This document shows, one piece after another, positions 29,252-47,517 of a DNA stretch of 64,000 nucleotides. The stretch lies in IMG/VR virus record IMGVR_UViG_3300011480_000001, positions 1 to 64,000 of that record; one strand, given 5' to 3'. The translations under genes were made by a program, and so were the position numbers. The stretch is from a virus. Its lineage: Duplodnaviria; Caudoviricetes. How positions within the stretch are numbered: position 1 is the first letter of the stretch; each line of letters starts with the position of its first letter. The notes under the pieces were generated by a model, which did no database searches, was not told where the DNA came from, and saw only the letters and a list, made by a program, of their open reading frames with translations.

Positions 29252-30760
29252 CTAGGTATTTTCATTATTTGATGTTGAGCTATCGCCACTACCGCCTGAA
29301 GAAGAACCAGTTCCATTCCCTAGACCAGTCTCCATCCCGTCACCGCTTCTTGAAGTATCTTCCCCAAGTAAACTATTTAACTCTTCTTGGGACATATCAA
29401 CAGGAATACGATAAGGGATATCAGCAGTTTCAAGGATCCAGTTAATCGTCTCTCTAACGCGCGGGAGATTTCCAGTAGCGGAAACACGTTGAATCCACTT
29501 ACTAACTTCATCTAGTGAAGGCTTGCTAATCTCACCATAAGTGATTTCTGGCATCACATCAGTAGAGAATCCGTTTAGCTCAAATAACTGGCGAACTAGG
29601 TCGTGATTTAGCTGAGACTTAATCTCGTTCAGTTTACTTTCAATCGCCATTTCAATAACAGAAATCTTAGTTTCTGCAAGAGAGAAAGAACCAGAACCGT
29701 TAGATCCAAGTGAAAGGAAATCAGAGAAAAGGCAAGTAAGAATTTCAGAATTATAACGAGCAATAATTGCGTTAGTGTCGTAACTCGATTGTCCTGTTAC
29801 ACTTTTAACCTCAAACTCAAACATTTTATTATTGTTATCGTCTGTGATTAATGGAAGAATGATGCCTGATTGTTTAGCTTGATGAATGTTTGCAAGAATC
29901 TTTTTATACTCTTCAAACACTGCTTTATCCTGCTCTGTTGCATCAGCCTTCATATACTGAGGGGGTAGGTAAAGGATCTTGAATCCGTTTACATCCTGTG
30001 CAACTCTCATTGCCTCTGATTCCATATAAGCTTGTTTATATTTCCAAGCCTGCCAGCAACCATTTAAGGAGCTAACCCCTGTAGGAGAATTCTTTAATGG
30101 GTTGTTGCGGAAAAGTAAGAACTTTTTACGAGGAATAAACTTACGCTGAGTTTCTTCACTGTAAACGAAGTCCCAACCTTGGTAGTCTTCTGGTTGACCA
30201 GGTACAACTACGTTTTGATAAAGTCCCGCAAGCTCACGTCCTTTGTTTTTCCATTTCCAGCCGTCAATAGAATCTTGGGAGCGGATAGGTAGCTTCTTGA
30301 TACCAATCAGTCCATCATTATACTTACTTCCTTTATCTCTCGTTCTGTATCTGTAACATTTTTCAATGACACAAAAACCGTAACGATTAAAGCTTACGAC
30401 TTGTTTGATAAAAGATTGCCAATCCTCCTCCATATCGTACATACACTGGCGTAGGAAATTAGCTTTATCTTTCAATTCATCTTCATAACCTTCGGGGATT
30501 TTTACAACCCAAGGTACACGAGCAATCATCATTTCAACAAGTTCAAGGGCAGGTGCCACAGCACCGTCTTTAGCCATTTTCTTGTAAGTTTCACCGGCCA
30601 TCGGCCACCTTAGCTCCCGGCTGCAATCCTCTAGAATTTGACCTCCTAACGTAAGGAGGCCCACATACCCTGTCTCTCCTAGAGTAAGAGCAGGGATATC
30701 GTTATTTCCAGGGGACAGTTGAACATCCTCTGAAGACTCAATTTCAACTTCAGCCATCAC
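29252..30760 (-). CDS. portal protein
   Basis: YGF.V.E..Y, IP..KFL.F....NSP.G, GS.SLA; between terL and protease. Confidence 0.88.
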   Translation of the reverse strand: MMAEVEIESSEDVQLSPGNNDIPALTLGETGYVGLLTLGGQILEDCSRELRWPMAGETYKKMAKDGAVAPALELVEMMIARVPWVVKIPEGYEDELKDKANFLRQCMYDMEEDWQSFIKQVVSFNRYGFCVIEKCYRYRTRDKGSKYNDGLIGIKKLPIRSQDSIDGWKWKNKGRELAGLYQNVVVPGQPEDYQGWDFVYSEETQRKFIPRKKFLLFRNNPLKNSPTGVSSLNGCWQAWKYKQAYMESEAMRVAQDVNGFKILYLPPQYMKADATEQDKAVFEEYKKILANIHQAKQSGIILPLITDDNNNKMFEFEVKSVTGQSSYDTNAIIARYNSEILTCLFSDFLSLGSNGSGSFSLAETKISVIEMAIESKLNEIKSQLNHDLVRQLFELNGFSTDVMPEITYGEISKPSLDEVSKWIQRVSATGNLPRVRETINWILETADIPYRIPVDMSQEELNSLLGEDTSRSGDGMETGLGNGTGSSSGGSGDSSTSNNENT

Positions 30761-31497
30761 TACCCCTCATTAAACTTTACCCACTTACTATCTTGACAAG
30801 GAATCCAACCTTCCTTAAATTTCTTAAGTATAGTAAAAATTGAACTTCTAGGGACTTCATCACAATACAACTCATTATAGAGTTTAGTGAATCTACGCTC
30901 ACCCAGTTTATCAGAGTTAATCCAAACTTCATAAAATACTTGTGCATTCTTCCAAAGCAATGTTAGATAAGGTCTTGCAACTACCTTAGAAGTTTCCCAA
31001 GGAGCAAGATTCTTATTCCTAGCGGCTTTTGACATATTCTTTCTTGCGGTTTCTGATCTTTTTGCGCCAAGATTAGCCATACGGGTACGCTCTATTGACT
31101 CAGGAGATTGTTTCCTGCCTTTGCTTGCAGCTCCAGTTTTCAGCTTAGCTTCTTCTGTATGCTTCTTACCGAAGAAAGGATTGCCCGCGCCCTTATTAGC
31201 TGTTGAGGCTACTATTCGGGCCTTTTCAAATTCTCTTGAAGTAGTCTTATAGCTATTACTCATAATCCAATACGCTCTTTGGTATTGTTTACAAGACTTA
31301 TTAGACTTCCACAAAAGTTTATGGGCAAGGAAATGTTCCCTCAAAGTGAGTAACACTAGGTTTTCTTTCTTGTTTGATCCACCCATACTTCTCAAGACAA
31401 TATGGTGCTTCTCAGTATAAAAATTTAATTTATTCTTGTTCAGACCTCTAGCCTGCCTTGAGTAAACAAGTTTGTTGTAAAGATCTAAGTAATTCAA
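30760..31497 (-). CDS. free-standing HNH homing endonuclease with NUMOD3 motifs
   Basis: EKHHIV.RSMGGSN..ENLV.LT.REH..AH; NPFFGKKHTEEAK; TTG start. Confidence 0.88.
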   Translation of the reverse strand: MNYLDLYNKLVYSRQARGLNKNKLNFYTEKHHIVLRSMGGSNKKENLVLLTLREHFLAHKLLWKSNKSCKQYQRAYWIMSNSYKTTSREFEKARIVASTANKGAGNPFFGKKHTEEAKLKTGAASKGRKQSPESIERTRMANLGAKRSETARKNMSKAARNKNLAPWETSKVVARPYLTLLWKNAQVFYEVWINSDKLGERRFTKLYNELYCDEVPRSSIFTILKKFKEGWIPCQDSKWVKFNEG

Positions 31498-31519: not shown

Positions 31520-32878
31520 CTATTGTCCTGCACGTTGAAATGGGTTATCAAAGCTTAGTTGAGAACCTTGAAGCCCTGATAGGAAGTTTGGAATGTTAAT
31601 TTTCTGAGCTAATGTAATAAATGAATCACTTGAGGCGTCCACTTGGTCATCTTTTACTCTTCTTGTTCCATCAAAACCTTCAAGTTCTGAGAAATAGGTT
31701 TCATTCCAAGGGGCCTCAACGTAGTCAATAAGACCTGCTTGAGCAGCAGCAGCAAAAGGCTGGAACCTTACCACTTTTGATTTATTAGAGGGCCGCATGC
31801 GAGCAGCGAAACCTTCACCCAATAGATCCTTAATCATCATCTGACCAGCAGCTTTACCAGCTTGTCCTGGCTCTTGTGGAATAATAATCTGAGTTTCCGG
31901 GGGATCTGATTTAGCAGTCTCAATAATCTTTTGCATTACTTCGCCAAACCTAGCCCTGAATCTCACCACATCCACGACTACATACCTCTGATCTTTAGTC
32001 TTCGCGATAAGAACACCACAGGTCCAATCGGGGTTGGGCAGGTCATCCGACGGAAGAGAACCAGCTATATCCCAAGCCCTACAGTAAGATATAATATTTA
32101 AATCTACAAAGCTTGTAGCCTTACACCACTCTTTTTTGAAGTAACCGCTTGAAGATTCACGAACAAGCCAATTGCCGTCTAAAAGCCTGGACTTTTCTAC
32201 GCCCTTAAGACCCTTTAACCACGCAACGTACTTTGGGTTAATTCGTTGCACGATTGGGTTATCGGTTACGTTGGCACTGATAAAAGTGAAAGAAAGAATA
32301 TCCTCTAAAAGTACCCCATACTCTTCTGCAATCTCTTCAGGAGAATCACCCCAAACAAAGTCACCATCTTGGAAAGTAAAATAACGAAGCAGTCCATCCT
32401 TAGTTCTGTCTGGCGTACCATCTTCATGCAGATAAGGTTCTACCCATTTACGTAAAAAATGATCATAGGAAGGATTGCACGTAATTTTAAGCTTAGGTTG
32501 TACTTCGGGGCAGTTTGGGTTACGCATACGAGACATGATATACTGAATCATATGCTGCGTGAATTGCGTGCCCTCATCTACATAGTACAAATTTGCCTCA
32601 GCGCCTTGCCAGTCTTCATCGGCATCATCGTTTTCGAAGTGCTTCATGTAGATTTCAGCTTTGGACTTGAAGAAAACAAATTTCTTATCTTTAGCATACC
32701 AACGATATTCGTCTGGTTTATATGCTTTAGAAAATATACGCTTGCACTTAGATAGAAGTCCACCTGGACCCATAAGCTGTGGAGTTGTACGTCGAGTCAT
32801 TACCCCAATAAAGTTGGGAATGTCTGTGTATTGAAGGAAGTCAATGGCTCCGATTTCAGATTTACCGGAGCCTGCTGC
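31520..32878 (-). CDS. terL: terminase large subunit, exon 2
   Basis: Begins AAGSGKS; YYVDE Walker B, CNP, RAWD.A, DDQVDA nuclease motif. Confidence 0.93.
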   Translation of the reverse strand, partial: AAGSGKSEIGAIDFLQYTDIPNFIGVMTRRTTPQLMGPGGLLSKCKRIFSKAYKPDEYRWYAKDKKFVFFKSKAEIYMKHFENDDADEDWQGAEANLYYVDEGTQFTQHMIQYIMSRMRNPNCPEVQPKLKITCNPSYDHFLRKWVEPYLHEDGTPDRTKDGLLRYFTFQDGDFVWGDSPEEIAEEYGVLLEDILSFTFISANVTDNPIVQRINPKYVAWLKGLKGVEKSRLLDGNWLVRESSSGYFKKEWCKATSFVDLNIISYCRAWDIAGSLPSDDLPNPDWTCGVLIAKTKDQRYVVVDVVRFRARFGEVMQKIIETAKSDPPETQIIIPQEPGQAGKAAGQMMIKDLLGEGFAARMRPSNKSKVVRFQPFAAAAQAGLIDYVEAPWNETYFSELEGFDGTRRVKDDQVDASSDSFITLAQKINIPNFLSGLQGSQLSFDNPFQRAGQ

Positions 32879-33119
32879 CAATACTGTTATGAAGTTCGCT
32901 AAACTTCTCTCAAGTTTCCCTGAGTGTCGGACCAACTCTTAATTCAAAAGAATTCTCTCTGTTTCGGGAATCGCTTGACCCCTACTCTACTCACTTCCAC
33001 TTACGTGTGTTTTCGATGGCCTCTACGCACTGTCTTTAAACATTGGCACGGGATTACCCTCAGCATTGCCTGTTAGGGCTTCCCCGTTTAAGAGAGTTTT
33101 AAATGGAGGCGCAGATTTC
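32879..33119 (-). ncRNA. ORF-less group I self-splicing intron in terL (241 nt)
   Basis: Exon ends in U, intron ends in G; P1 AUGGUGGU/GCCUCCAU with U.G; P AAACGGGGAA, Q AAUCCCGUG, R GUAGAGGCCA, S AAGAGUUGGUCC; splicing restores YGG-AAGSGKS. Confidence 0.92.
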
Positions 33120-33203
33120 ACCACCATATAGTGTTACATCAGCTTGACTTTGGACGTACATCAACTGGCGTTGACTACAAGGTCCCGGTAAGTCTTGATT
33201 CAT
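33120..33203 (-). CDS. terL: terminase large subunit, exon 1 (28 codons)
   Basis: MNQDLPGPCSQRQLMYVQSQADVTLYGG with AAGGGA RBS; contains the adenine-binding Q motif. Confidence 0.88.
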
Positions 33204-33234
33204 CTTGATCCCTTTTATTAACTATTTTATGTAT

Positions 33235-33410
33235 AGTTGGCTCAGAGACTCCATATTTTATTGCGGAGTCCCTACAATTTACTCTAGCTAAATAAAACGG
33301 GGTGTCCCCCGACAAGCTCGAAAAGGTAAGCGCCCTACCTCACCAACCGTATTACCACAGCCTCATGTTTGGATTTACGGAACGCTTGTAACTAAATAAA
33401 GTAGAGGCCA
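33235..33410 (-). ncRNA. structured RNA / terL leader
   Basis: GUUGG/CCAAC closing stem around three GC-rich hairpins; GCCUC/GAGGC stem upstream. Confidence 0.45.
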
Positions 33411-33444
33411 CCGAAGCAACATACTTTCTTAAACTGTCTATACA

Positions 33445-33472
33445 GTATAATGCGAAGTTGCTAATTTTGCAA
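33445..33472 (-). promoter_or_regulatory. sigma70 promoter upstream of the terL leader
   Basis: TTGCAA-17-TATACT. Confidence 0.6.
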
Positions 33473-33496
33473 CCACTTATAACAAATAATTTTAAA

Positions 33497-33871
33497 TTAA
33501 TTAGCTTCTTCAGAATCTTCAGAGGATTCTTGTCCAACAGCTTTTAGATATTGGCGGATTAGTAGATCGCGTGAGCGTCCAGTCAAACCTGTGTCTCTAC
33601 GAACTACGTGTTTCATGTCGTCCCATTCCATGGCCTCAAGTTGTTCTTTAGTGTACACTTCAAGGATACGTTGGAACTGGAAACCCGGAGTATTTTCCAT
33701 AAGCTCTTCAGTCTCAAAGTACATGAATGCTTGATGAGGGAAACGCATGAAAGGAACTTTACCCTCTTGAAGAACAGCACCTTTATTAGCAAGAGCTACA
33801 ACGTTGCGCATAAAATCAAAACCAAGACTGTCTTTGGTTCCAGTGACTAGTACAATATATTTGTTTGACAT
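33497..33871 (-). CDS. hypothetical protein between terS and terL
   Basis: Protein-like sequence from MSNKY; the longer ORF extension runs through structured RNA. Confidence 0.7.
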   Translation of the reverse strand: MSNKYIVLVTGTKDSLGFDFMRNVVALANKGAVLQEGKVPFMRFPHQAFMYFETEELMENTPGFQFQRILEVYTKEQLEAMEWDDMKHVVRRDTGLTGRSRDLLIRQYLKAVGQESSEDSEEAN

Positions 33872-33966
33872 TTTAAATTCCGAAATGATTGAATAAGATA
33901 TAAATTGCTTTATCGAACACTCTTTATCAAAGTGCTCTGTACAACAATTTAAGAATAGGTGCTGAA

Positions 33967-34150
33967 GGCCACTTATCTTCCTGCCAATCAGCCTGCAAGC
34001 ACGAAAGTCTGCTCGCCTCTCCACAGACCTCGTTTACGTGAAGTCACTTCGGCCACGTTTCCACACGGGCATTAGGAATAAGGGCCTCTAGATTGGTTCT
34101 AGAGGCAAACTCACTAGGCAAAGTGAGATACCAAGCACGCAGCTTGATAC
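33967..34150 (-). ncRNA. structured RNA(s) 3' of the Thr-like tRNA
   Basis: Three hairpins, then a ~120-nt multi-stem domain closed by GGCC-CUUAU-UCCU-GCC / GGC-AGGA-AUAAG-GGCC. Confidence 0.5.
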
Positions 34151-34225
34151 TGGAGGCAAAGTTCGGAGTCAAACCGAAGTCACGGCGTTACAAAGGCCGG
34201 GTAATGATCACTATACGACAATGCC
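34151..34225 (-). tRNA. non-canonical tRNA, anticodon UGU (Thr-like)
   Basis: Cloverleaf with encoded CCA; two U.U mismatches in acceptor stem, C31.C39, T-loop UUUGACU. Confidence 0.7.
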
Positions 34226-34233
34226 AAAACTAT

Positions 34234-34647
34234 TTAATCTTTCTTGCTACCATCCAACATCGTCAAGCTAAACCTCTTGACGGGAACTTCAGGAACAACT
34301 TCTTCCTTTTCTCCCTCTTCGTTGTTATCTTCAGCTAACTCTTTCTTAAGAGTATAGCGAGATTTCTCTTCGTTCAACACAGCAGCTTGAGTCGTAACAG
34401 CCCTCTCGCAAATCCATCGGGCGATTTGAAGTTGGTCTTTGTCTTGAACAATTGGATCACCATTCTCGTCTTGCTTTGCATCAAGAACAGCATCAATGAT
34501 TTCCATTGCTTTAGGAACACGAGCAAGCAGTTCGTTAGCTAATTCTTTTAGCTTTGAACGAGGAATACGCTTGCCTCTGATCCCTTTTTGATTTCGGTTC
34601 TGAGGGTTTGAACTTAATCCTTGTTTGTTTCCGACTGGTGCTGCCAT
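34234..34647 (-). CDS. terS: terminase small subunit (probable)
   Basis: MAAPVGNK...NP...G N-terminus typical of TerS; upstream of terL. Confidence 0.65.
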   Translation of the reverse strand: MAAPVGNKQGLSSNPQNRNQKGIRGKRIPRSKLKELANELLARVPKAMEIIDAVLDAKQDENGDPIVQDKDQLQIARWICERAVTTQAAVLNEEKSRYTLKKELAEDNNEEGEKEEVVPEVPVKRFSLTMLDGSKKD

Positions 34648-34713
34648 GAAAAATACCTCTTATTATTCTTTACTTTCTTTGTAAAAACTACTCAGAGAAT
34701 AGGCTTTAGAAAG

Positions 34714-34856
34714 AAGTCTATATGAGAGGAGAAAGACACATATAGACTTGGAAGCGGCTATACGAAGGAGGAGAGACAACGTACAGCCAATAGGCGTTCA
34801 ACTACAAACAAGGAGAGAATCTGTAGTTGAACATTCACGCATTACTAAGGAGGATT
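34714..34856 (-). ncRNA. tandem hairpins with anti-Shine-Dalgarno (CUCCU) loops
   Basis: Hairpins at 34714-34749, 34756-34788 and 34796-34832; G.U pairs form only on the minus strand. Confidence 0.7.
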
Positions 34857-34863
34857 TTACTTT

Positions 34864-35157
34864 TTAGCGTGAAGAAGACACTCTAATGAGACCATTATTT
34901 TCATACTCAGTTTCGTCGTATTCGTGACTGAATAATTTATAATACACTTCATCAGAAAACTGTTCAGTTTCAGCTAAGCTGTGTGCAACCATATTAGCTC
35001 GACCAACATTAGGAAACTCACCAAGATTTTCGCTAGATGTTGACTGAGACGATTGTGTGTATTTCGTCACTACATAACGAGTAACTGGTCTTACTTTATA
35101 CTCAACCTTGGCGTAAGGCTTTTCTTCTGTTACATTTAAATCTTCAATTTCAATCAT
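34864..35157 (-). CDS. hypothetical protein
   Basis: GGAG RBS; YKVRPVTRYVVT motif. Confidence 0.7.
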   Translation of the reverse strand: MIEIEDLNVTEEKPYAKVEYKVRPVTRYVVTKYTQSSQSTSSENLGEFPNVGRANMVAHSLAETEQFSDEVYYKLFSHEYDETEYENNGLIRVSSSR

Positions 35158-35254
35158 ATTTACTTAACTCCACAGAGTTTTTAAATTTAAAATTACAATC
35201 CGCAGATTGTGTTATTAGTTTGTAGTCTTTCCCACTGTCATTTAAAACTTAGGT

Positions 35255-35439
35255 ATTACAGAGGAAGTCGCACCGTTCTGTTAGCTACGCCCTCAAGGGG
35301 ACTGGGTCCAGAACATATAGCATTTTAAGCTATATCCGCTTCCAACAGAGAGTGTATTCCTCTGTCCGTCCAATGACTAATTAAAGTCCAGTGCCGCCTA
35401 ATACACAACGGTGCTCACTGCTGGTCTTACGTCTGTAAT
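35255..35439 (-). ncRNA. ~185-nt rod-like structured RNA
   Basis: Nested long-range stems AUUACAGA/UCUGUAAU, GCACCGUU/AACGGUGC, GGACU/AGUCC plus two internal hairpins. Confidence 0.55.
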
Positions 35440-35442
35440 GTT

Positions 35443-35531
35443 TGGCAACCCGTAGAAGTAATGATCTCCGTGACGATCCATCCTCATGTTTTACGTCAAA
35501 GGCTTAGAAGACCTCTTGAGGGGTACGGGTT
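35443..35531 (-). tRNA. D-armless tRNA-like RNA, anticodon UCU (Arg-like)
   Basis: Perfect AACCCGU/ACGGGUU acceptor plus G-CCA; AGAGGU-CUUCUAA-GCCUUU arm; long variable arm; no D-arm. Confidence 0.6.
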
Positions 35532-35536
35532 ATATG

Positions 35537-35611
35537 TGGTGGGACCAGCAGAAATTGCATCTGCATATCTCGTCTTATGAGGACGGTTCATTACTTTTAT
35601 GATATAGTCCC
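35537..35611 (-). tRNA. tRNA with CAU anticodon (Met or Ile2)
   Basis: GGGACUA/UGGUCCC acceptor, A-CCA, loop CUCAUAA, T-arm GCAGA-UGCAAUU-UCUGC. Confidence 0.82.
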
Positions 35612-35619
35612 GTAAATTC

Positions 35620-36025
35620 ATTGCACCCTAAAGTCATAAAATCAGGAGTTAAGGAATTACCTACATTTCTGTATTCTTTAGGACGACTTTACCAGAATGT
35701 GACGTATTCTACTCACTTACCGAAGGTCAAAATAAGCTTTCAAACAGAGCGTCTTCACAGATAGCTCATTCTGATTTTTATAATTGCCTTTCGGCCAACA
35801 GAATTCCTAGCGTCTGCTAGGCTACGGTGTAATTGGTGTAAACCTACACTATCTCTCACCCTGTGAATTCGTAGAACTACTAAATCGTATCCGCTCTCGT
35901 AGTCGTAGCTCGGATTTAGCATCCCTGTTGGAAGGACTGGTCTACTCGCCAACGTATTACGCCGCGTATGAACGTAATATCCGTGTTGCTCTTTTAAATT
36001 CCCGAAGCCTCTTCGGCTTTCCTGT
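35620..36025 (-). ncRNA. ~400-nt structured RNA ahead of the tRNA cluster
   Basis: Many stems (CCAACAG/CUGUUGG, CUAAAUC/GAUUUAG, CCUAGC/GCUAGG, GCC-GAAA-GGC, AAAAUCAG/CUGAUUUU) directly behind a consensus promoter. Confidence 0.5.
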
Positions 36026-36031
36026 GCTGAC

Positions 36032-36059
36032 ATTATACACTATTTATTTATATTGTCAA
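36032..36059 (-). promoter_or_regulatory. consensus sigma70 promoter for the ncRNA/tRNA operon
   Basis: TTGACA-16-TATAAT. Confidence 0.8.
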
Positions 36060-36268
36060 CTATTTTCGTTATAATCTATCAAATTTAGTGCGTATTCCGT
36101 AATATCTCCAAACTGATAGGTCTTTACATCAATATATTCAGAGTTATCTGAAATGAAGATACATGCCGTACACATATCTTCTTCCACGTACATACCTTCA
36201 AACTCATCATTGCTTTTATATCGAACCATCCCTGTTAAGGGCGTGTCGCAACATTTACATCTAGACAT
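36056..36268 (-). CDS. small Zn-finger protein
   Basis: CKCC...DMCTAC; AGGA RBS. Confidence 0.7.
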   Translation of the reverse strand: MSRCKCCDTPLTGMVRYKSNDEFEGMYVEEDMCTACIFISDNSEYIDVKTYQFGDITEYALNLIDYNENS

Positions 36269-37016
36269 TTCTGATAAATCCTATTCCTTTTTCATATTGA
36301 TTTGGGTCTTTACCAGATTTACTACGATTGCATGTTGGACACAAAAGCTGTAAATTATCAGGCCAGTGACTTCCACCCTTACACAAAGGCATTATGTGGT
36401 CAATATGATAACCTGTGTTATCAAACAAGGCATCACAATAGACACACTGACCTTCTTGATTCATGTAAAGGAGTTGAATGTCCGCATTACTAAAATGGCC
36501 ATCAGCTTCTAATTCACGCTTACGTCTAAGCTGGCTGTAAATCTTAGCCCAAGGTTTGTAATTTTCTTTGTTTTCTTTTACACATGCAACGCAAAGTCCT
36601 GTCTCAGTAGATCGTTTAGAAAGGTGATTGTTTTTACATGGTAATTTAGTATCATAAAAAGGCTCATCGAGTTCCTTAGCTATCTCTTTGGTTCTTGGTA
36701 AAATATCCAAATCTTCTGAACCAAAGGTGTAGTTCGTCAACAAACCTGTCTTTTCTGTATCTGAAACTTCTGATAAAGTTTCTCTAATAAACCGCAGAGC
36801 TTCTTTTGCTTTCTCTTTCTTGGCAACTCTATTTTCAGCCCGTTCTTCCCATTGGAATGAGTTTTCAGCTTTATGTTCTTCAAGACATTCACAACATTTG
36901 TTTGTAGAAACATACCTATCTGAAATATGACCTTTAATACATGCTTCACCAGTAAAATAGAAAACTAACCCAAGCTCTTTGGCCTCTTTTCTTGTGATTA
37001 TTTCCACAATTACCAA
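36261..37016 (-). CDS. HNH endonuclease with two N-terminal Zn-binding repeats
   Basis: CVYC...HIDHIMPL.KGGSH...NLQLLCPTCNRSK. Confidence 0.85.
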   Translation of the reverse strand: MVIVEIITRKEAKELGLVFYFTGEACIKGHISDRYVSTNKCCECLEEHKAENSFQWEERAENRVAKKEKAKEALRFIRETLSEVSDTEKTGLLTNYTFGSEDLDILPRTKEIAKELDEPFYDTKLPCKNNHLSKRSTETGLCVACVKENKENYKPWAKIYSQLRRKRELEADGHFSNADIQLLYMNQEGQCVYCDALFDNTGYHIDHIMPLCKGGSHWPDNLQLLCPTCNRSKSGKDPNQYEKGIGFIRNV

Positions 37017-37090
37017 AGCTCTTGTAACTTAAGAGCACATAGTATATCATGAAAGTCTCAAATTACAAGTAGCTTGCTAATAAATTTTAA

Positions 37091-38446
37091 CTATTTCTTA
37101 TCCACCTTACAAAATGTCTTATCACCTAACACTTCTTCCCAAGCTGAATACATAGCCTCACGAAGATCGTGTTCAGCAGAAGCTTTTACCAAACAACTAT
37201 CGTGATACACCAAAACTGTATGATCCTTCTGCACCATCGTTTGAATAATGTTCATCATAATATCGGAGTCAACCTTTTGAAGAACAACACCTTTATCTTT
37301 GTAGAAGCTTTCAGAAATCAAGTCGTTGTGTTCTTTGATTGCAGACAAAATCCTTTTGACAGGAATTGTGCCTACGACACCTACAAACAGCTTTTCTTCT
37401 TGCTCTTTCTTTTTAGCATCATCCCTCACTTTACCGCTCATAGCACCAACAGCTTGTGCTTCATCTACAGAGTTGATACCGATCAGTATAGCAAGCTTTG
37501 CAAGATTACGCAAAGGATTGTATGGCTTTCCAATCAGCTTTGATTGTTTTTCAATCTCAAATTGATCTACCTGCACAAATGACAAGTCTGCATCATACGG
37601 ATTGAAACCTTCCCCGAATAAATCGTAAACATTCATCCCATCCTTCAATAGCATCTGATAACAAATATTAGGATGTATAGCACTGAAATCCAGTTCAACA
37701 ACAGGTTCACCATCAATTGTGAGATATTCATTACGTAGACGTTGAGGAAGTAATTGAACACCTCCACCAGCAGCATAGATACGACCAGCTACATGCATTG
37801 TATCTAAGAATACACGTTTGTATTCAACAGTTGCAATCTGCTTACCATTGTATTTAATATCTGCTTCTTTTAAACTTGAGTTATACGTATCCATCTTTTC
37901 TCTTGCCTCTTTAATTCCGATTTTACCGCGAGTACCTAGTTCATCTCCCGTTTTACGATTCCTCACTTGTACTGAATCATCTACGCGGCACTCAGTAAAC
38001 AAGTCAACAGGGGGAATGGATGACCAAAGGTCTGTAAGCCTCTTTCTGAAAATCACACAAGATGAAATCACATACTCAGGGACTCTCTTACCGTTCTCAT
38101 ATCTCCAAGAGTCAACAAATCCTTTATAGATATGGATATACGCCTTCTCTTCCAAGAATTGAAGGAGAGCTTTAACACCTCTATACCCAATCTTAGCTTT
38201 GTTACCCGTGTAATAACCAGGATCTAAGGATACTCTCATTCCTTCTGCTTTGTTATTAATAGCTCTTGCCATATTAGATACGAACCACTTAACAGCAATG
38301 CTCCATTCTCCTTCTGTGTGAGTTAAGAGAGAGTCAGTGATGTGTTGGTAGTAATCAGACTGATGGTAGTGTAGATAGGTATTGGAACAGCTTAAGGATA
38401 TCCCATGTCTATCTAGTGTACTCATATTACTTAGTTCATAAATCAT
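37091..38446 (-). CDS. minimal family-A polymerase-like protein (PolA / T7 RNAP fold)
   Basis: GRIY, motif A ELDFSAIHP, motif B RNLAKLAIL, motif C VYHDS; no exonuclease domain visible. Confidence 0.65.
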   Translation of the reverse strand: MIYELSNMSTLDRHGISLSCSNTYLHYHQSDYYQHITDSLLTHTEGEWSIAVKWFVSNMARAINNKAEGMRVSLDPGYYTGNKAKIGYRGVKALLQFLEEKAYIHIYKGFVDSWRYENGKRVPEYVISSCVIFRKRLTDLWSSIPPVDLFTECRVDDSVQVRNRKTGDELGTRGKIGIKEAREKMDTYNSSLKEADIKYNGKQIATVEYKRVFLDTMHVAGRIYAAGGGVQLLPQRLRNEYLTIDGEPVVELDFSAIHPNICYQMLLKDGMNVYDLFGEGFNPYDADLSFVQVDQFEIEKQSKLIGKPYNPLRNLAKLAILIGINSVDEAQAVGAMSGKVRDDAKKKEQEEKLFVGVVGTIPVKRILSAIKEHNDLISESFYKDKGVVLQKVDSDIMMNIIQTMVQKDHTVLVYHDSCLVKASAEHDLREAMYSAWEEVLGDKTFCKVDKK

Positions 38447-47210: not shown

Positions 47211-47517
47211 GCCTTCAAAGGACTGCTTTGTTGTGATGACTAGTGATGGTATTTTCCTGCATGTAATGAAAGATTATTATGATTATGTGAGAAAGCTATC
47301 AGATGTAATTGGTAATTATGATGTAGTATGGAAAGGAGAATAAGGTGGCGAGTCGTAAGGCTATTTTAAAAGACCTAGAGTCAATACTATTGAACGTAGA
47401 TAGAGCTTGTCGTAAAGCTGAAAGAGTGGCGAGCAAGCTAGATATTCCCAGTCTAGGAGAATTGATTCTTATCAAGACTCAACTAGAGGACGTTATCAAG
47501 AAAGCTAAGGAGAAAGA

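Follow-up and report, generated by a model that had tools for sequence, protein, structure and literature searches.

The window analyzed here comprises 64,000 nt of a phage record (IMG/VR) of 91,262 bp with terminal repeats and a G+C content of 39.8%. Its terL is about 52% identical to that of Pseudomonas PAK_P1/KPP10-like phages, with Felix-O1-like phages more distant, and Gammaproteobacteria are the hosts of the nearest cultured terL relatives. The minus strand carries every gene around the locus described below, in the order of a 97-aa open reading frame, a gap of 216 nt, a 137-aa open reading frame and terL (Table 1). The product of the 137-aa gene, which we call terS-like, had no significant match in PHROGs, Pfam or PDB sequences. 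AF2 predicted a two-helix hairpin with a basic N-terminal tail and an acidic C-terminal tail at a mean pLDDT of 70, and a Foldseek search with this structure gave no match at E <= 0.001. Homologs of the terS-like protein sit upstream of terL in related phages. A search for related loci seeded with the protein of the window found nothing, and the protein alignment was too variable for use in a pattern search.

Table 1. Positions of the features discussed in the text, numbered within the 64,000-nt window
Feature	Position	Strand	Remarks
97-aa ORF	34864-35157	minus	open reading frame upstream of the gap
Promoter-like site TGAACA-16-TATTAT	34966-34939	minus	9/12, weak; sole upstream site in the window
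5' boundary motif	34867-34880	minus	UGUCUUCUUCACGC in the window, GUUUCACC in most relatives
First hairpin, P0	34834-34873	minus	7-bp stem, 26-nt loop; MFE fold of larger context
Hairpin H1	34833-34795	minus	15-bp stem, loop UCUCUCCUU at 34818-34810
Hairpin H2	34789-34755	minus	10-bp stem, loop UUGUCUCUCCUCCUU at 34779-34765
Hairpin H3	34749-34714	minus	11-bp stem, loop UGUCUUUCUCCUCU at 34738-34725
U-rich tract CUUUCUAAAG	34704-34713	minus	conserved, directly after H3
Hairpin H4	34676-34714	minus	39 nt, long, without a CU loop
Weak SD UAAGAGGU and ATG of the 137-aa gene	34645-34662	minus	neighbor, outside the RNA module
137-aa terS-like gene	34234-34647	minus	terS label from position only
RBS matches of the loops	133-143, 47508-47517, 59598-59589(-), 58569-58560(-), 6303, 40380, 45739		normal spacing before ATG

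The three strong hairpins that the first-pass annotation placed before terS are present, and on the minus strand each of them exposes a pyrimidine loop with CUCC. The stretch UCCUCCUUA ahead of them had been described as unpaired. It is indeed exposed (34854-34846), but it is displayed within the loop of a further hairpin, P0, which is also found in L002, the closest relative of the window phage. The last 8 nt of UCCUCCUUA equal what we take to be the 3' end of 16S rRNA (an E. coli-type terminus). The H2 loop is the same in L002 despite a changed stem, while the loops of H1 and H3 differ there.

The element has recognizable borders on both sides. Homology to L002 starts at the 5' boundary motif, which reads UUCACGC in the subgroup of the window and begins 2 nt past the tRNA-Arg of L002; this motif is likely the 5' end of the RNA. 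On the other side, the U-rich tract doubles as the 5' arm of the long hairpin H4 and could be a leaky terminator tail. The form (C/U)UUUCU(A/U)AA follows H3 in L002, L012, L016, L019, L022-L028 and L149-L152, and the counterparts of H4 in relatives are longer and branched. Counted from the 5' motif, the RNA would measure roughly 170 nt if it ends with the U-tract and about 205 nt with H4, and somewhat more in relatives. A 126-nt core of the element folds with an MFE of -43.5 kcal/mol, compared to -15.8 +/- 2.7 in 200 dinucleotide shuffles (z = -10.3), and the fold of the whole gap has a z-score of -6.1 on the minus and -3.95 on the plus strand. When both strands of the 91-kb genome were scanned, no second cluster of CUCC-loop hairpins was found.

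Relatives were gathered through terL and the terS-like protein, and whole genomes were also searched with a covariance model. About 20 uncultured phages, mostly of 85-93 kb, share the module (L002, L004/L016, L007, L012, L018, L019, L022-L025, L027, L028, L030, L070 and L149-L152), and L009 and L031 carry looser variants of it. Wastewater and fermentation samples are among the sources of relatives. The order of parts is the 5' motif, the first hairpin, an exposed CCUCC/UUCUCC, three pyrimidine-loop hairpins, the U-rich tract and a long hairpin. Fold z-scores of the element range from -2.6 to -10.3 over 14 loci.

The first-pass annotation had noted that the stems differ while the loop motif is kept, and comparison across the related phages bears this out. 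Stems are nearly unrelated in sequence between members, with pairing retained. When eight members were aligned with MAFFT on sequence only, 19 of 28 pairs proved changed on both sides, compared to 11.1 +/- 1.9 in shuffles (0/500 reached this number). The count rises to 25 of 28 in a model-fitted alignment of 17 matches, where covariation is 0.564 against 0.188 in shuffles and <= 0.13 with slid partners; this alignment is biased towards structure by construction, and three of its 17 matches are weak (E > 0.4). A MAFFT alignment of 12 elements was misaligned (RNAalifold called 0 pairs) and was replaced by a closer subset together with a structure from single-sequence folds. Across 19 members, CUCC is present in 54 of 57 loops and 590 of 601 loop bases (98%) are pyrimidines; by our estimate, about 42% of random pyrimidine loops of this length would hold CUCC by chance.

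A covariance model built without the window, R1, matches 34711-34787 with 27.4 bits (rough E 0.003), a partial match that covers H2 and H3. On this basis the window phage and L002 form a divergent branch of the R1 family. R1 scores 22-60 bits in L070, L007, L023, L030, L018 and G001-G004, which were not used for training, and the RNA family is kept down to about 52% terL identity. When a degenerate DNA pattern of H2 was run against IMG/VR, most among the matches listed were due to chance; those in L070 and L102 are real.

Searches of catalogued sequences gave little. Neither the region nor the element of a relative had a blastn match among 50,697 GenBank phages. The terS-like protein had no tblastn match among the same phages either, so there is no cultured relative in which this RNA could be found there. 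No Rfam 15 family was called at the gathering threshold in the whole window, and our literature search found no description of a phage RNA of such kind. We are highly confident that the hairpins are part of a conserved, uncatalogued structured RNA encoded on the gene-sense strand.

The CU-rich strand had been proposed as the functional one on the grounds that A.C mismatches on the plus strand become G.U pairs on the minus strand. Such G.U pairs are seen in H1 and H2, and since they would be A.C mismatches on the opposite strand, the CU strand folds better. The sense fold of the window element is better than the antisense fold by 8.9 kcal/mol, and MFE values summed over 14 loci are -549 kcal/mol for sense and -468 kcal/mol for antisense, with sense better in 12 of the 14. 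In relatives, the neighbors of the element include tRNA genes of the same strand, and the 5' motif starts at the base after the tRNA CCA in L007, L018, L022 and L149. Same-strand sigma-70 promoters lie ahead of the tRNA/RNA unit, with 12 of 12 consensus positions in L022 (TTGACA-16-TATAAT), 11 of 12 in L031 and 10 of 12 in L009, L018 and L007. The CU-rich, gene-sense strand is thus supported as the functional one by fold energies, by co-orientation with and abutment to tRNAs, and by promoters on the same strand.

These promoters also bear on timing. The RNA had been described as late-expressed; sigma-70 promoters such as that of L022 are more typical of early or constitutive transcription by the host polymerase and do not support this claim. 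Host-type consensus sequences of this kind suggest that the unmodified host polymerase transcribes the unit in relatives, and it could start early. On the other hand, the distantly related phage PAK_P3 produces abundant, strongly late sRNAs beside its tRNAs (PMC4933390), and so both early and late expression of the RNA are possible. Public sequencing runs contained relatives only (share <= 0.27) and were used as contigs. A 523-nt contig from two RNA-seq runs of one study covers 34654-34859 with 95% identity, at a k-mer depth above that of neighboring contigs; since contigs cannot show strand, ends or expression, we do not count it as evidence.

Although the gap precedes the terS-like gene, this position appears incidental and the element does not seem to be a terS leader. 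In G001-G004 about 3 kb separate it from terS further downstream, and a tail-fiber-like gene comes next after it, so a link to terS is not supported. In L028 a tRNA-Gln, and in L022 a gene for a 336-aa endonuclease, stands between the two. L018 (~1850-1990) and L024 (~1740-1880) have T-arm-like sequences, GGUUCGAAUC and GGUUCGAUUCC, between the long 3' hairpin and terS; these sequences gave no ARAGORN call and are perhaps tRNAs that have degenerated or depart from the usual form. L012 has a weak hammerhead type III match upstream of the RNA (169-236; 26 bits where the gathering score is 48.5, E 0.25), which is probably due to chance.

Among known RNAs, the closest in design are the cuckoo RNAs, defined as 2-4 adjacent hairpins of 24-50 nt each with loops of 9-27 nt and variable stems (PMC4615179). 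The cuckoo/alpha-r14 group (RF02344 ar14; RSs0680a-d = CcsR1-4; SmelC397 = NfeR1) belongs to Alphaproteobacteria (PMC4615179). In the window element, too, three hairpins follow one another, each 35-39 nt long and with a loop of 9-15 nt (7-8 nt for some loops in relatives); stems vary and each loop carries the same C/U-rich, anti-SD-like motif, so the resemblance drawn in the first-pass annotation is valid for the design. It does not extend to family membership. Cuckoo/ar14 loops carry CCUCCUCCC, while the loops here have CUCUCC(U) or CUCC, and CCUCCUCCC is in 0 of 57 loops; one CCUCCUCCC stretch occurs in L009 only, outside the modelled set. With the ar14 model, whose gathering score is 58.8, the window reaches 21.3 bits (E 0.35) and L002 reaches 33.6 bits (E 0.013); apart from an isolated tRNA-like match, ar14 is the sole Rfam family with even a weak match to the element. 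Cuckoo/ar14 RNAs of Rhizobiales and Rhodobacterales are Hfq-associated and often present in several copies. The RNA described here is phage-borne and single-copy, is found next to tRNAs in phages of virulent type, and has an additional 5' motif, first hairpin and long 3' hairpin. Because motif, score (21-34 against 58.8 bits) and setting all fail to agree, this RNA is a new family, cuckoo-like in design and outside cuckoo/ar14.

Other comparisons are more distant. The C-rich loops of S. aureus RNAIII and of other UCCC-loop sRNAs have been proposed or shown to pair with the SD regions of several mRNAs (PMC4615179). These are Gram-positive chromosomal regulators with no homology in sequence or architecture to the present RNA, which has CUCC in purely pyrimidine loops. 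As context only, sRNA1 and sRNA2 of PAK_P3 and the band C/D RNAs of T4 (species 1/2) are likewise small, stable RNAs located by phage tRNAs in virulent myophages. We know of no function found for the tRNA-linked stable RNAs of T4 since the 1970s, nor for the PAK_P3 sRNAs. The tRNA region of Nankokuvirus RP11 (L015), a PAK_P3-like Pseudomonas phage, contains neither an array of CUCC loops nor an R1 match.

The loops suggest a role at ribosome-binding sites. The first-pass annotation had quoted loop matches to RBSs in the window, and all of these exist, each at normal spacing before an ATG (Table 1). The consensus of the GGAG-type RBSs of this phage is UAAGGAGAAA, with GGAG followed by A in 60% and by G in 10% of cases; UCUCC/UUCUCC loops can therefore form more pairs with these sites than the 16S tail can. 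In silico, composition-matched shuffles hardly ever bound translation-initiation regions as well as the real loops did (0-1 of 60). The RBS of the thyX type is AAGGAGAGA and that of the capsid type is AGGA. In agreement with the earlier observation that structural genes use other RBSs, GGAG precedes 30% of structural and 53% of other genes in the window genome, with the same trend in two distant relatives.

In the window genome, structural genes have predicted loop-RBS duplexes that are less stable by 1.4 kcal/mol (p = 0.017), and in two relatives of about 52% terL identity, tested with their own loops, non-structural RBSs are also bound better (p = 0.003 and 0.0014). The 16S tail had little or no bias of this sort in the same three genomes (p = 0.68, 0.026 and 0.52). 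The test used crude gene calls with starts chosen by SD score. Pairing thus favors non-structural genes, but the bias is small, 1.4-1.8 kcal/mol over the three genomes, and CU-rich shuffles share part of it, reaching the observed value in 8/40, 3/40 and 0/40 trials. This bias fits the idea that early and middle genes are silenced and is weak evidence for it. A more specific version of the idea, in which 10-11-nt matches direct the RNA to thyX and other individual genes, found no support. Even L002, the nearest relative, has other H1 and H3 loops, which makes specificity of such matches unlikely, and no ortholog stood out as a conserved target: among 33 three-way orthologs, none was top-ranked in all three genomes.

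The reading that we tentatively prefer, and which seems to us quite possible, is that of a trans-acting, multivalent anti-SD RNA linked to tRNAs, with four CUCC sites that pair with GGAG(A) RBSs as a class. The RNA would be a stand-alone product of the strand of the tRNAs and structural genes, co-transcribed with the phage tRNAs from host-type promoters. Processing of tRNA ends would release it, with a 3' end at the U-tract after H3 or beyond it by read-through. It would then display four pyrimidine sites with a CUCC(U) core, one in a large loop and three in hairpin loops. As the 16S anti-Shine-Dalgarno sequence has CUCC(U) at its core, these sites could pair in trans with SDs of the GGAG(A) type, matching UAAGGAGAAA by more bases than the 16S tail. 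Such pairing may occlude strong-SD mRNAs or compete for ribosome binding to them, and these mRNAs would be phage non-structural and probably host messages; the weaker, shorter SDs of structural genes would be less affected. The analysis itself shows the structure, its strand, its conservation with covariation, the invariant CUCC of the loops, the linkage to tRNAs, the independence from terS and the pairing bias in silico; accumulation of the RNA, its timing, its pairing with RBSs and any effect on translation are inferred.

An early-to-late switch would be an attractive role for an RNA of this design. Against the anti-SD reading, repression of the phage's own early genes would be odd if sigma-70 promoters make the RNA early. 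A bolder form of the idea is that a phage-made anti-SD mimic, abundant from replicating DNA, soaks up GGAG(A) SDs on host and early/middle mRNAs; we regard this as unlikely. If true, ribosomes would shift to weak-SD structural mRNAs and initiation selectivity would be reprogrammed by RNA only.

Another possibility is that the RNA acts on a protein. CUCC(U) loops could be bound by a host or phage RNA-binding protein which the RNA titrates or recruits, as a decoy or RNP scaffold; ribosomal protein S1, a factor handling the 16S 3' tail or a phage protein would be candidates. A short, invariant motif displayed in multiple copies on rigid stems is typical of protein sponges, loop sequence varies outside the CUCC core, and the failure to find a shared target among the three-way orthologs also fits. 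We nevertheless consider a decoy rather unlikely. The loop motif CUCC coincides precisely with the anti-SD core, and the loops lengthen the possible duplex with the RBS consensus of the phage itself. No protein emerged as a candidate partner, and the neighboring terS-like protein had no match to an RNA-binding family.

A cis-acting leader of the structural and packaging block is improbable in our view. Transcription would be attenuated at the U-tract after H3, or terminated by Rho acting on the C-rich loops, and later released by a phage factor; the lambda PR'-6S-tR'/Q leader and HK022 put are models for such an arrangement. In every case the module precedes the structural genes and shares their direction, whatever intervenes, which fits a cis transcriptional role. 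Consensus promoters lie upstream in relatives, and in L019 H3 and its tail are terminator-like, with 16 pairs, a 7-nt loop and TTTCTTAA. Intrinsic terminators combine a G+C-rich stem and a loop of 3-8 nt with a U-run after them, and none was called in the window, where H3 has a 14-nt loop and an AU-rich stem, nor in L022. The loops are C-rich and G-poor like rut sites, which are largely unstructured over about 60-80 nt, yet very stable stems separate the loops. Binding of Rho or RNA polymerase leaves the invariant CUCC unexplained, and we know of no such requirement of rut sites. In the window, same-strand genes occupy 34864-38446 upstream of the element, which is therefore not at the head of the block, and no antiterminator gene was identified.

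Three further readings are improbable even when taken together. The first is cis translational control of the terS-like gene, in which the upstream CCUCC would mask its SD until remodelling. In a 223-nt fold of the window, AAAAUCCUC pairs with the terS SD region GAGG-U-AUUUU, and this pairing is possible in L002. It cannot be general because a tRNA, an endonuclease gene or about 3 kb intervenes in the relatives described above, and the terS SD of other relatives is only AGGU, without complementarity to the loops; we give this reading very little weight.

The second is that a plus-strand transcript acts as a CsrA/RsmA sponge. CsrB, RsmY and RsmZ also display a short motif on several hairpins, and the complement of every loop here has AGGAG and hence GGA. 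These RNAs show GGA on the transcribed strand, whereas the strand supported here shows CUCC on long and perfect stems; Csr/Rsm sponges have much shorter stems than the 10-16 bp seen here. Csr/Rsm models of Rfam, including CsrB, RsmY and RsmZ, had no match in 33500-36000 even with the cutoff relaxed to E <= 10, and none in four relatives at E <= 1. Early antisense transcripts over the structural genes of PAK_P3 (PMC4933390) count in favor of a plus-strand RNA. Antisense folds are worse in 12 of 14 loci, and it is the CU strand that carries the promoters, the tRNAs, the U-tract and the 5' motif next to tRNA ends; fold asymmetry, flanking tRNAs and sigma-70 promoters thus make a GGA-loop sponge very unlikely.

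The third, a DNA-level signal such as a pac site, terminase recognition site or replication origin formed by cruciform repeats, is suggested by the nearby packaging genes of the window and by three repeats at roughly 40-bp spacing, but is scarcely credible given the G.U pairs, the strand asymmetry of folding, stems that are not sequence repeats, the roughly 3 kb between element and terS in several relatives and the abutment to tRNA 3' ends.

For the anti-SD reading, four exposed copies of the anti-SD core make the functional surface unusually clear. To our knowledge, regulatory RNAs of virulent phages are almost unexplored. If RBSs are paired as a class, the RNA would represent a new way in which phages bias translation, in addition to the ribosomal proteins and mRNA nucleases that phages encode, and also a compact and portable translational repressor module. 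Should it prove cis-acting or protein-binding, it would still be a structured RNA missing from the catalogs and worth an entry in Rfam.

Several features of the surrounding genes deserve mention. Contigs of a related phage from RNA runs X19 and X20 join 34878 straight to 35615, so 34879-35614 (minus strand) looks like an insertion in the window phage just upstream of the RNA. It contains most of the 97-aa ORF and a stretch of about 450 nt (35158-35614) that is richer in G+C and apparently non-coding, and the ORF takes its last codons and stop from the 5' motif of the RNA. Neither an Rfam family nor a tRNA was found in 34879-35614, and ARAGORN called no tRNA upstream of the element with the window as it is or with this stretch removed. 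Just downstream of the terS-like gene, a tRNA-like sequence at 34154-34225 (minus strand) scored 38.3 bits in a permissive local Rfam scan. It had no ARAGORN call, was missing from the whole-window scan at gathering threshold and may be a decayed tRNA; an intact tRNA is found at the matching place in L002 and L009.

The terL gene itself (31520-34024, minus strand) appears interrupted. The terL profile match of a 471-aa ORF (31520-32935) starts only at position 168 of 642, and a 175-aa ORF without a family match (33497-34024) lies about 560 nt upstream of it. Rfam group I introns are located in or beside terL in L004 and L009 (68 and 81 bits), but the window gave no such call. Next after terL comes a gene for a homing endonuclease (30760-31497), and an HNH/endonuclease VII-like gene (36261-37016, minus strand; phrog_1035, E 4e-25) is present among the small genes upstream of the RNA; with these two genes, the region is rich in mobile endonucleases.
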